NCBI GenBank assembly: GCA_051251855.1
Contig: JBPOGI010000007.1
Coordinates: forward strand, 128,001 to 192,000
From: Roseibacillus sp.
GTDB taxonomy: Bacteria > Verrucomicrobiota > Verrucomicrobiia > Verrucomicrobiales > Akkermansiaceae
Length of the DNA stretch: 64,000 bases
Reading direction: 5' to 3'
Part shown: piece by piece, positions 39,001 through 42,000 of the stretch
How the letters are laid out: the number at the start of each line of letters is the position of its first letter
Position numbering within the stretch: the stretch's first letter is position 1
Position numbers: made by a program

Positions 39001-42000
39001 GCTCTGGTCACTGGCGGCTATCGGGCTGCTTCCGCAATGCACATTTCTGGCCCCCTTGCCATGGTCGTCGCGGGCCTCATGATCGGCAACCACGGTCGTC
39101 TTCTCGCCATGAGCGACACGACCCGTATCCACCTCGACAAATTCTGGGAACTCATCGACGAAATCCTCAATGCCGTCCTCTTTCTCCTCATTGGTCTCGA
39201 ACTTTTCGTTCTTAAGCTCTCCGGTCCCGCCATCACCGCAGGACTCGTCGCCATTATGATTGGACTCGGCGCTCGCTTTCTTGCGGTCTGGCTCCCTGTC
39301 ACCCTTCTCAAGCGAACACGCACCTTCTCTCCAGGTGTGATTCGAGTCCTCACCTGGGGAGGGATTCGTGGCGGAATCTCTGTTGCCCTCGCCCTTGGGC
39401 TTCCCAAGGACTCCGATTACCGCGACCTCTTTCTCGTCATGACCTATGTCGTCGTCATTTTCTCCATCTCAGTTCAGGGGCTGACGCTTGGTCCTGTCGT
39501 TAGAAAGCTCGTCACTTCTCAATCGGGTCCAGATCCTGAGAATTCTCATTAATTGAAAATTCCTCGCAAGATTCTCTTGCCAATTTCCCGCTCACCCTTT
39601 AACACTCGCCGCCCACTGCTCGGGTGGCGGAATTGGTAGACGCGCCAGACTAAGGATCTGGTGTCCTTTACGGATGTGGGGGTTCGAGTCCCCCCTCGAG
39701 CACCATCTTTTTTGAGGGACTTGTGAAAAATCACAAGTCCCTCTTTTTTTGGGCTAATGTCTTCTTCCCCAGAAATCTCAAAACTTATGCACGATATCGA
39801 GCTGGCTAAGTCTGCATTTTGCTCGAAACGACCGCTTTCCACGGCACCCGATAGAGACTCAATATGCGGTATCTGAAGATACTCGGAGCCTGCGAGTCAA
39901 GATTGACACAACGCAAGCAAATCGAGAGCCCTGATGACCACACAAGAGAAAACTAGCGAAGTCATCGACGCGCTCCGCCACGCCTACGAGATGGAAATTG
40001 AAACCGTTGAAAACTATCTGGCCGCTTTTTGAAACAGTCTTGTCAAACTTCTCCGCTTCGCCTCAGAAAAGCTCGTCCTGAATGAGTCCTTGAGGCTTCT
40101 TAAGAAGCGGGTTTTCACACTCGCGAATCGTAAGGACTCCCTCAGCTACTTCTTGCAAAACCTCCTCCCCTGATAAATATCTCGCCGAATCCTCGGCACT
40201 TAGAACGACCGGCATGCGATGATGAATCGGTAACACTAACCGATTCGCCATCATCGTAAGCATGGAGAAACAGCGCCCAAATTCCGGCTGCTCTTCCCAT
40301 ATTCCCGCCATCCACAGTAACTCGCCATCAGGGCTCTCAAAACGATAGCTCTGCTTTTTCCCCTCCGGTCCTTTCCATTCAAAATAACCCGCCACCGGAA
40401 TCAAACACCGCCTCGTCTGATAAGACTCCCGCCACATTGAACTCTCCAAATTGTCTACCCGCGAATTATTCACCACCCCTATATTTTTTCGGCGAAAACC
40501 CCAACTCATCATCTCCACCTCTCCATCACTTCTCACAACCGGCGCAGCATCTGTTCGACGAATCAACCGGCGCTCCACAAACGCCTCAAGTTCCTTCACC
40601 GCTTCTTCCTTGAGAGAACCCGAGAAACTCCCTGTTTTCCCCCCCATCTCATAAGCATTGCACATCCTACTTTCACTTTAATGCAGTCACTCCTTGGCCG
40701 CCACGCTCAAAAACGATCTTATCGAGTCCAAAAGATAAAAGCGTCTTGCGGATGAGAATTCGTCGCGAGTCTCCTTTCTTCCTGCTAAAAAACAACACCT
40801 GTTCGTCTCAGTGACCACTCCGCAACCTCTGCGACTCTGCGTTGCACGAACCACCCTCTACCCTCTCATGATTCCCGACAACGCCGTCCTCCAGCTCGCC
40901 TCCCTCCTGATTGCCAAAGAACCCACCCCCGACCTCTTAGCTACTCTTCAAAACCCCGCCGTCAGCGAAATACTCATCGCCCTCGAGCCCTCAGCCAAAG
41001 AACTCCTCACCCGCCCTTGGACCGAAAAAGACTACGAAGAAGCCGCCGTCGAATTCTGCCGTCTCTTCATCCTCAACCCCGCCGTCCCTGCTCGCGCTGC
41101 TGCATGGATCGAAGACAAACCCGACGAGATCGCAGGCCGCATCCAATTCATGCTCGACCAAGGCTTCCTCACCCTGCCCGAACCCTATGCCAACCTCACC
41201 CCCGACCACCTCTCCGTCCTCCTCATCATCCAATGCTCTCTAGGCGAAGAAGACGACGGTCAATTCTGGGCCGACAACCTCGCCCCCTGGCTACCACGCT
41301 TCGGTAAAAGGCTCCGCAAAGACTCCCACTCCCCCCTCTACCGCCTCGTCGGTCATCTTCTGAAAACCACCCACTAAAGGGAGGGCATCGACGGCCCCGC
41401 CGCGCAGCAACTCACCATTGATTAATCCGCAGCTTTTTCTAGTCGCTGAAAAAACGTCTTGGATAGAAGAGACCTCTCTTCCCATCTCACCTTCAGCCTC
41501 AAGAATGAAAGTCCCGTCCGTTTGGAAAAGAAATGGCCTCCCAATAACTAATCAAGCGGTCCGAGCCTATACAGTTCCAGCAATCTAACCTTTCCAACCG
41601 CGACCTATTTTGTCGCGACCTCACGGCATCCTGACATCATCACGCTATGCCGCGAGCTTCTCATCAACAGACCATCTACCGCCAATGGCTCATCTTGCGG
41701 AAGCTGACCACCCGTCGCCCGGGAATCACAGCTCGGGAGATGAGGGACTATCTGGAAGGTGAAGACGTCCCCGTCACCAAGCGCACTGTCGAGCGTGACC
41801 TCAACGAACTCTCTCGCATCTTTCCCCTAGAGACCAGCGAAGGTAGCCCGCCCATCGGCTGGCGTTGGCGTAAGGATGCGGTGCAAGAGTTGCCGGGGCT
41901 CGAGCTCGTTGATGCGCTTTCCCTCTCGCTGGTGGGAGACCTTCTCAACCAAACCCTCCCCGCCAGTCTTCACCCCTCGATCAGCGCCCGCGTGGCCGAG

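Follow-up and report, generated by a model that had tools for sequence, protein, structure and literature searches.

A tRNA-Leu(AAG) gene in place of tRNA-Leu(GAG) in Roseibacillus and its order, and its probable conversion to an inosine-34 tRNA

Results

The tRNA-Leu(AAG) gene

The stretch of DNA analyzed here, referred to as the window, comprises 64,000 nucleotides of contig JBPOGI010000007.1 of Roseibacillus sp. (assembly GCA_051251855.1). ARAGORN identified one tRNA gene in the window, a tRNA-Leu with the anticodon AAG at tRNA position 35 in linear count (Table 1). The match to RF00005 extends from 39618 to 39702 and scored 55.9 bits (E 2.4e-09, gathering score 29) over model positions 1-71 of 71, and it has the full cloverleaf and the long variable arm of the class-II leucine type. 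The cloverleaf was recovered by the covariance model and by the alignment fold; the minimum free energy fold of the single sequence gave no cloverleaf (z = -1.83), which is usual for tRNAs. Among 36 order-level orthologues, compensatory double changes were observed in 11 of the 25 helix pairs, and the anticodon AAG was invariant in all 36. The gene is therefore real, functional and conserved under selection, and the claim of an earlier note on this DNA that it is a genuine tRNA was confirmed by both ARAGORN and Rfam. A scan of the upstream sequence found no sigma-70-like promoter, a result that is uninformative for this phylum.

Table 1. Positions of the tRNA-Leu(AAG) gene, its parts and the downstream hairpin in the window
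Feature	Position	Strand	Basis
tRNA-Leu(AAG) gene, class II, long variable arm, 88 nt with encoded CCA	39618..39705	+	ARAGORN, Rfam RF00005
Anticodon arm, 5-bp stem and 7-nt loop CUAAGGA	39645..39661	+	Comparison with the genome's own tRNA-Arg(ACG) arm
Anticodon AAG; A34 at 39652, the presumed TadA target	39652..39654	+	ARAGORN; deamination inferred
Encoded CCA of tRNA-Leu(AAG)	39703-39705	+	
Intrinsic-terminator-like hairpin (13 pairs, 7 G-C), then a T run	39714..39750	+	9 nt past the CCA

The tRNA set and the leucine codons of the genome

In the whole genome (13 contigs, 4.96 Mb), ARAGORN found 50 tRNAs and one tmRNA. The class-II leucine tRNAs carry the anticodons TAG, CAA, TAA, CAG and AAG, no tRNA-Leu(GAG) was detected in the 13 contigs, and the only other A34 tRNAs are two tRNA-Arg(ACG). 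These five leucine anticodons had been listed in the earlier note; the list lacked two further 74-nt 'Leu' tRNAs (TAG and TAA) that ARAGORN placed in a tRNA cluster on contig C10. ARAGORN found neither tRNA-Ile(GAT) nor tRNA-Ala(TGC) in the assembly, from which it follows that the rRNA operons are unassembled.

In 3253 long ORFs, the leucine codons were distributed as CTC 40.3%, TTG 18.5%, CTT 17.9%, CTG 12.9%, TTA 5.5% and CTA 4.8%. CUC is thus the commonest leucine codon, in the same proportions as in the counts reported previously. Together, the CUY codons account for 58% of all leucine codons in the genome and for 71% in the translation genes, a set of 27 Pfam-verified ribosomal-protein and EF-Tu/EF-G genes with 320 leucine codons. 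In this set CUC accounted for 40.0%, CUU for 30.9%, CUG for 7.2% and CUA for none of the leucine codons, and the arginine codons CGU, CGC and CGA accounted for 45.3%, 44.1% and 3.7% of arginine. The leucine pattern in the translation genes parallels that of the I34-read arginine box and fits inosine. As in the known tRNA-Leu(IAG) systems, CUU and CUC are both favored, including in highly expressed genes. An unmodified A34 should disfavor CUC, so the high CUC share in the translation genes counts for I34.

Spread of the AAG anticodon

The tRNA-Leu(AAG) gene was found in 54 of 61 genomes of the family (18 of 20 genera), while none of the 61 yielded a tRNA-Leu(GAG). The sister family carried an AAG tRNA in 4/4 genomes and, in a wider count, in 8/8. 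As sampled, the trait is order-wide (family f1, 62/66 genomes; f2, 8/8; f71, 1/1). All five closed, single-contig genomes of the family, searched with an outgroup GAG tRNA as the query, contained AAG, CAG, TAG and CAA only (with TAA in one) and lacked GAG. The presence of a genomic tRNA-Leu(AAG) without tRNA-Leu(GAG), which characterizes the known inosine systems, was thus observed here and in the five closed relatives. Among 401 genomes of the class Verrucomicrobiia, no genome carried both AAG and GAG; five apparent double matches were discarded because they were not tRNAs.

These counts alter several earlier statements. The absence of tRNA-Leu(GAG) from this genome agrees with the closed relatives, and the earlier caution that such a gene could lie in an unassembled part is contradicted by them and by the 61 family genomes. 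The previous estimate of 11 of 22 family genomes was far too low because an exact stem had been searched. That distant Verrucomicrobiales have TAG or CAG instead holds for that exact stem, but the sister family has an AAG tRNA of its own. Neither is the trait a feature of a marine clade, as had been proposed: its order-wide range includes a genus whose locus occurs in mouse-gut RNA runs, and the trait reappears in further families of the class.

Outside this order, at least three more lineages of the class acquired AAG independently; it was found in family f5, in part of f44, in f78 and in one genome of f100. The AAG-bearing part of f44 includes a genus that has both AAG and GAG species. In genus g261, two AAG and three GAG species were examined. 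The CUU share was higher in the AAG species, but their GC content was also lower and the sample is small, so that the contrast in codon usage is suggestive only. In the ribosomal-protein cluster of the two AAG species, CUC made up 29-41% of the leucine codons.

Orthology and the anticodon loop

The acceptor stem and the D arm are common to the window tRNA and the GAG tRNAs. Compared with GAG tRNAs of other classes, the window tRNA shows 82-83% identity; with the AAG tRNAs of f5 and f44 it shows 70-79%. On these grounds, tRNA-Leu(AAG) is directly orthologous to tRNA-Leu(GAG) in other Verrucomicrobiota. The earlier view that an A34 leucine tRNA replaced the G34 one, with an origin independent of the Firmicutes cases, is upheld.

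In this order, the tRNA-Leu(AAG) loop CUAAGGA differs from the genome's tRNA-Arg(ACG) loop CUACGGA at position 35 alone, and both arms are closed by the pair A31-U39. Of the 17 arm positions, 14 are identical in the two tRNAs, among them the six that flank the anticodon (31-33 and 37-39). Among the 49 other tRNAs compared, the tRNA-Leu(AAG) arm was the nearest to the tRNA-Arg(ACG) arm; one listed tRNA was left out of this comparison because it had no 17-nt arm. The GAG orthologues have the loop UUGAGGG, and the AAG lineages in f44 and in genus g41 of f5 retain a loop of the GAG type, UUAAGGG, which means that an A34 leucine tRNA can be fixed without an Arg-like loop. In genus g3 and family f2, the loop of tRNA-Leu(UAG) is CUUAGGA, so that C32 and A38 also occur outside TadA substrates; this counts against editing.

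The loop CUAAGGA fits YUAMGRA, described in PMC11472039 as the extended TadA consensus of S. pyogenes, in which positions 35 and 37 vary between the two substrates of the enzyme and TadA contacts C35 through a single hydrogen bond. According to PMC11066159, E. coli TadA partly modifies an AAG anticodon that is set in an Arg2-type loop, and changes at position 32, 37 or 38 abolish this modification.

TadA

The genome encodes a single canonical TadA of 179 aa (contig C9:169297-169833), in agreement with the earlier note. It scored 137 bits against PF14437, has the HAE and PCPMC motifs, and matched S. aureus TadA (2b3j, 7e-47) and E. coli TadA (1z3a, 5e-41) in phmmer. Such a TadA-type tRNA adenosine deaminase is also encoded in the known tRNA-Leu(IAG) systems, and TadA was present in 129 of 131 genomes of the class. 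A second gene with a deaminase fold (73.8 bits) is unrelated.

TadA sequences were compared in an alignment of 70 sequences, of which 23 came from the order, 10 from f5, 5 from f44, 1 from f78, 30 from GAG lineages, and 1 was unclassified. No column showed the same derived residue in at least three of the four AAG groups, and few columns coincided between two AAG groups. The tail after the conserved FF motif measured 13-30 aa in the order, 14-30 aa in f5, 7-18 aa in f44 and 13 aa in f78, or 7-30 aa in the AAG lineages overall, and 5-28 aa in the 30 GAG-lineage sequences. These ranges overlap, so the tail does not discriminate between AAG and GAG lineages, and a C-terminal extension, as noted for S. 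pyogenes, was rejected as a marker of AAG. With neither a convergent residue nor a distinguishing tail, the earlier proposal of a TadA with a widened substrate range is without sequence support.

RNA-run contigs at an orthologous locus

A run search with the orthologous locus of a related gut genus listed 24 runs, 10 of which were recorded as RNA. In each of the four mouse-gut RNA runs compared, the locus was covered by one long contig, which extends across the tRNA into its flanks and has A at the site. None of the contigs of these runs had a G34 version, although contigs lose minority variants. The contigs are assembled, 1.8-5.4 kb in length, and may represent DNA carry-over or unprocessed transcripts. 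The A at the site is thus weak evidence against editing and cannot decide the question of inosine, although these contigs are the only direct view of RNA here and show no editing. Short contigs of high depth that overlap the D arm were also observed; these are leucine tRNAs of other organisms, one of which has a GAG loop on a different stem.

Discussion

A34-to-I34 editing as the best reading

Taken together, the orthology, the loop match to tRNA-Arg(ACG), the fit to YUAMGRA and the codon usage make the editing of A34 to I34 by the canonical TadA the best reading of tRNA-Leu(AAG). We consider it probable, with both the deamination and the enzyme inferred. G34 gave way to A34 in an ancestor of the whole order (f1, f2 and f71). 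The tRNA is charged by LeuRS, an enzyme that acts without reading the anticodon, and after transcription the single TadA of the genome most likely deaminates A34 to inosine. The normal substrate of TadA is tRNA-Arg(ACG), and the enzyme plausibly accepts the leucine tRNA because its loop and closing pair copy the tRNA-Arg(ACG) arm except at position 35. The resulting tRNA-Leu(IAG) would read CUU, CUC and, weakly, CUA, and it would be the main leucine decoder because CUY codons predominate genome-wide and still more so in the translation genes. I34 in tRNA-Leu(AAG) has been demonstrated in O. oeni and S. pyogenes (for S. pyogenes, PMC11472039). Against easy acceptance by the enzyme, the same source describes the S. 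pyogenes tRNA-Leu(AAG) as unedited by E. coli TadA.

Other readings

Alternatively, A34 may stay unmodified. The tRNA would then be a good reader of CUU and, through A:C wobble, a poor reader of CUC, and tRNA-Leu(UAG), perhaps with cmo5U34, would share the rest. Unmodified A34 exists in bacteria, where O. oeni retains it in its threonine and serine tRNAs, and the A in the RNA-run contigs, the GAG-type loops of the AAG lineages in f44 and g41, and a TadA that lacks a signature of adaptation are all consistent with it. An orthogonal tRNA with the AAG anticodon was reported to read CUU at 4.3% and CUC at 1.5% (PMC11066159). The genome also encodes cmoB (403 bits, curated cut-off 275) and cmoA (215 bits, curated cut-off 193), so a cmo5U34 tRNA-Leu(UAG) may also read CUU, and the earlier description of tRNA-Leu(AAG) as the only CUY decoder was too strong. 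However, cmoB was present in this genome and in 4/4 congeners and was found in 0/130 other class genomes sampled and in 0/1 other family genus tested; confined to this genus as sampled, it cannot explain an order-wide trait, and cmo5U was rejected as the general explanation. The codon usage also argues against an unmodified A34. CUC makes up 40% of the leucine codons in highly expressed genes and is still frequent in the two AAG species of g261, while the absence of CUA and the low share of CUG in highly expressed genes make tRNA-Leu(UAG) look minor. Together with the shift of the loop from the GAG type to the exact tRNA-Arg(ACG) context, these observations make an unmodified A34 unlikely in our estimation.

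Editing that is partial or conditional, or another modification of A34, would give a mixture of A34 and I34 and a different decoding. The partial modification of AAG in an Arg-type loop by E. coli TadA (PMC11066159) is a precedent for this, but the S. pyogenes tRNA-Leu(AAG) was fully edited in all growth phases (PMC11472039), and we regard such a mixture as improbable. It has also been suggested that a tRNA-Leu(GAG) lies in the unassembled part of this 95%-complete genome, with the AAG gene as an extra or decaying copy. The loss of the rRNA-operon tRNAs from the assembly would allow for such a gap. Nevertheless, 54 of the 61 family genomes examined have AAG and none has GAG, the five closed ones all have AAG and lack GAG, the two do not occur together as real tRNAs anywhere in the class sample, and the covariation is that of a gene under selection. 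This reading is close to refuted.

Possible stages and significance

The class Verrucomicrobiia may offer a natural series of stages through which inosine tRNAs arise, a possibility we put forward tentatively and with more doubt than confidence. The switch from G34 to A34 in tRNA-Leu has taken place at least four or five times in the class. The f44 and g41 lineages have kept UUAAGGG, and the order-wide lineage has remodelled its loop to CUAAGGA, the tRNA-Arg(ACG) context. The arginine substrate of the class-wide TadA mostly has G37. The enzyme would be naturally tolerant at position 35, and after each switch the tRNA would evolve towards the enzyme, not the enzyme towards the tRNA.

Outside tRNA-Arg, wobble inosine is regarded as a hallmark of eukaryotes, and among bacteria it is, to our knowledge, documented in the Lactobacillales only. 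A 2026 survey of a genomic tRNA database places almost all bacterial tRNA-Leu(AAG) genes in the class Bacilli (PMC13249217). No literature linking Verrucomicrobia or Akkermansia with tRNA-Leu(AAG) or I34 was found, and the supplement of that survey, where the AAG genes outside Bacilli are shown, may already list the clade. A case that spans an order of Verrucomicrobia and has repeated origins would be an independent replicate for asking how TadA gains a second substrate, whether the tRNA or the enzyme adapts, and what the switch does to leucine codon usage. A ready-made natural experiment is at hand in genus g261, with its AAG and GAG species. If the series of stages holds, a gut genus of the family, probably Akkermansia, would decode most leucine codons through an unnoticed inosine tRNA. 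Should the genus be Akkermansia, for which genetic tools are becoming available, the question would be directly testable in a cultured commensal. Engineers of TadA-based base editors would also have an interest in a TadA with natural tolerance at position 35.

Comparison with known systems

The system described here is similar to that of the Lactobacillales (S. pyogenes, S. mutans and O. oeni), in which an A34 class-II tRNA-Leu replaces the GAG tRNA and never occurs together with it, the loop fits YUAMGRA, a single TadA of the homodimer type is encoded, and CUU and CUC are heavily used. In contrast to those AT-rich genomes, it belongs to another phylum, with cells of the Gram-negative type and about 54% GC; within its class it has become fixed in an entire order and has appeared in at least three further lineages. 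Because G37 is already present in tRNA-Arg(ACG) here, position 35 is the only one at which the two presumed substrates differ. I34 and the activity of TadA have been demonstrated in the Lactobacillales; in the present system both are predicted. The tRNA-Arg(ICG)/TadA pair of E. coli and S. aureus shares with it the enzyme family, the loop context C32, U33, G36 and A38, and a substrate in the anticodon arm, but position 35 is A here and C there, and a strict requirement for the arginine loop is reported for E. coli TadA.

The eukaryotic ADAT2/ADAT3 system acts on tRNA-Leu with the same AAG anticodon, which as IAG reads CUU, CUC and CUA, and the G34 isoacceptor has likewise been lost. ADAT is, however, heterodimeric, depends on the entire tRNA and is relaxed in its loop specificity, whereas one TadA gene is present here. 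Unmodified A34 tRNAs, such as the tRNA-Thr(AGU) of Mycoplasma and the tRNA-Thr and tRNA-Ser of O. oeni, are alike in having a genomic A34 outside the arginine box. The O. oeni tRNAs are reported to be unedited. The window tRNA copies the loop context of tRNA-Arg(ACG) exactly.

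A conserved leucine tRNA with anticodon AAG

The Rfam tRNA model matches the window tRNA over its full length at 55.9 bits (gathering score 29), and the gene has a long variable arm and an encoded CCA. A 13-pair hairpin with a T run follows 9 nt downstream, and the neighbors are ordinary genes, for an Na+/H+ exchanger on the upstream side and, downstream on the opposite strand, for an SRAP peptidase. Among 36 tRNA-Leu(AAG) orthologues of the order, compensatory double changes were found in 11 of 25 helix pairs, the anticodon was unvaried (36/36), and the loop CUAAGGA was kept in 34. 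This pattern rules out a decaying gene; the window tRNA is a real, strongly conserved A34 leucine tRNA.

The window genome (13 contigs, 4.96 Mb) was scanned with ARAGORN, which found 50 tRNAs, a class-II leucine set consisting of UAG, CAA, UAA, CAG and AAG, and no tRNA-Leu(GAG). The only other A34 tRNAs were two tRNA-Arg(ACG). The earlier note's claim that the genome is rich in CUC and has tRNA-Leu(AAG) without GAG was confirmed by ARAGORN, Rfam and our own codon count. Because the rRNA-operon tRNAs are absent from the assembly, the absence of GAG was checked on relatives. Five closed single-contig family genomes from three genera, searched with an outgroup tRNA-Leu(GAG), all carried AAG, CAG, UAG and CAA (one also UAA), and none carried GAG. 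In a family sample of 61 genomes from 20 genera, best matches were examined in 59 (one genome had no match and one match was not retrieved); 54 of these, spread over 18 genera, were AAG, 5 were other leucine isoacceptors, and none was GAG. Both sets of relatives contradict the loss of GAG in an assembly gap.

The tRNA cluster on contig C10 consists of Met, Gly-TCC, His, Arg-ACG, Val-TAC, Leu-TAG, Leu-TAA, Ser-TGA, Lys and Pro-TGG. Among these are the second Arg(ACG), whose loop is CUACGAA, and two "Leu" tRNAs of 74 nt without a long variable arm; the cluster resembles a tRNA array of a mobile element or phage.

Features of the window and of other contig regions of the same genome
Feature	Location	Position	Strand	Remarks
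tRNA-Leu, anticodon AAG	window	39618-39705	+	ARAGORN; sole tRNA of the window
cmoB	C11 (window's contig, outside the window)	19586-20518		above curated cut-off
cmoA	C11 (window's contig, outside the window)	21779-22477		above curated cut-off
Second, weaker deaminase-fold gene besides TadA	C1	1779740-1780129		PF14437, 73.8 bits
10 tRNA genes	C10	114076-115599		packed in ~1.5 kb
Phage-integrase-family gene	C6	12910-14325		PF00589, 116 bits; immediately upstream of rpsL, head of the str/S10 ribosomal-protein cluster

Distribution and origin of the AAG anticodon

A common set of 401 class genomes with completeness of 90% or more was screened with two patterns. Of these genomes, 376 gave a match of AAG-or-GAG type and 108 one of AAG type. 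AAG was found throughout the order as sampled, in 62 of 66 genomes of the window's family (plus the window genome), in 8/8 of the sister family f2, and in the single genome of f71. It also occurred in f5 (22 of 24 genomes), f44 (11 of 14), the one f78 genome and one f100 genome; the remaining families of the class had GAG, as did those families of other classes in the phylum that gave a match. Within f44, genus g110 was uniformly AAG (7/7), and g261 comprised four AAG and three GAG species. Five apparent extra matches, including the sole one in family f45, were rejected as tRNAs by ARAGORN; hence none of the 401 genomes carries both AAG and GAG. The earlier count of 11 of 22 family genomes was therefore too low, and the proposed marine clade gives way to an entire order and further families; both resulted from searching for the exact stem.

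Family f2 carries an AAG tRNA of its own, in which the D loop and the stem differ slightly (4/4 genomes). In f44, the AAG tRNA shares 91% identity with a GAG tRNA from f45. For the window tRNA, identity is 82-83% to GAG tRNAs of other classes, versus 70-79% to the AAG tRNAs of f5 and f44. Every AAG tRNA is closer to its neighbors' GAG tRNA than to other AAG tRNAs; the G34-to-A34 switch thus arose repeatedly in the class, each time in place and without transfer between lineages.

The anticodon arm and TadA

The loop of the window tRNA (CUAAGGA, closing pair A31-U39) resembles that of the chromosomal tRNA-Arg(ACG) (CUACGGA, same closing pair). Among 49 other tRNAs compared, its arm is the nearest to the Arg arm, with 14 of 17 positions equal, including all six flanking the anticodon. 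GAG orthologues have the loop UUGAGGG and a G-C or U-G closing pair, so three features have shifted along with position 34. The Arg(ACG) loop with G37 is general across the class, GAG lineages included; TadA here would therefore need only to tolerate A for C at position 35. Against an inosine reading, C32 and A38 are also found in tRNA-Leu(UAG) of some relatives, and the AAG lineages of f44 and genus g41 of f5 retain the GAG-type loop. S. pyogenes TadA edits both tRNAs, with the extended consensus YUAMGRA, and the streptococcal leucine tRNA is not edited by E. coli TadA, according to an excerpt of PMC11472039. According to PMC11066159, an AAG anticodon placed in an Arg2-type loop is partly modified by E. 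coli TadA, and changes at 32, 37 or 38 abolish this.

The window genome encodes one canonical TadA, an enzyme present in 129/131 class genomes. Also against inosine, no TadA residue was common to at least three independent AAG groups in a 70-sequence alignment, and the lengths of the C-terminal tail, suggested to matter in S. pyogenes, overlapped between AAG and GAG lineages. In f5 (e.g., G069, G077, G110) TadA is strongly diverged, 45-48% identical to that of the window genome. The f5 Arg(ACG) loop has A37 (CUACGAA) and its Leu(AAG) loop is UUAAGGA or UUAAGGG, so more positions separate the two presumed substrates than is the case in the window's order.

Codon usage and decoding of CUY codons

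In 3253 long ORFs, CUC and CUU made up 40.3% and 17.9% of leucine codons, proportions that match the earlier ones. In a high-expression-type set of 27 genes for ribosomal proteins, EF-Tu and EF-G, all verified by Pfam (320 leucine codons), CUC was 40.0%, CUU 30.9%, CUG 7.2%, and CUA was not used. An unmodified A34 should penalize CUC in such genes. The I34-read arginine box had a similar pattern (CGU 45.3%, CGC 44.1%, CGA 3.7%). As CUA and CUG are avoided, tRNA-Leu(UAG) seems to be a minor species. In genus g261, the AAG species (G568, G640, G656, G695) and GAG species (G552, G631, G634) have near-identical tRNA bodies; the CUU share of the ribosomal-protein cluster was 37-38% in two AAG species versus 16-22% in GAG species, but these two AAG species also have lower GC.

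The tRNA-Leu(AAG) had been described as the only CUY decoder, which is too strong for this genome, since a tRNA-Leu(UAG) carrying cmo5U34 may share CUU decoding. Both cmoA and cmoB are present, and cmoB was found in 4/4 other genomes of the genus. However, a sample of 130 other class genomes and one further family genus gave no cmoB, which suggests that cmo5U34 synthesis is a genus-specific acquisition; this modification cannot account for the order-wide trait. Inosine is the best reading because of the Arg-like anticodon arm, the canonical TadA and the codon usage: TadA would deaminate A34, and the window tRNA is most likely its substrate, as predicted from these features. Against this reading, bacterial A34 tRNAs can stay unedited, as O. 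oeni shows. RNA was checked for one gut genus of the family; its orthologous locus is present in mouse-gut RNA runs. The sole long tRNA-spanning contig read A at the site in 4/4 runs, and no G34 version was found among the contigs of these runs; being assembled with kilobases of flank, the contigs may represent DNA or unprocessed transcripts, and the result is weak, yet not positive.

Comparison with known systems

Verrucomicrobia and Akkermansia were not mentioned in this connection in the searchable literature; the supplement of PMC13249217 or GtRNAdb may already list the AAG genes described here. Excerpts of the published accounts describe bacterial AAG genes as almost all in Bacilli (PMC13249217), ascribe AAG to Leuconostocaceae and some Firmicutes in a survey list that lacks Verrucomicrobia (PMC8007984), and call I34 on tRNA-Leu rare in bacteria, reported up to 2021 only in O. 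oeni (PMC8266599). AAG is far more widespread than the earlier note held, having arisen repeatedly in the class. The class adds a graded series of AAG lineages, in which some retain a GAG-type loop and one has a loop remodeled to an Arg-like form; one genus has both states. In every genomic respect, the window tRNA and the TadA of its genome agree with the Lactobacillales pair of tRNA-Leu(IAG) and TadA, and they would probably work like that pair, with no new mechanism.
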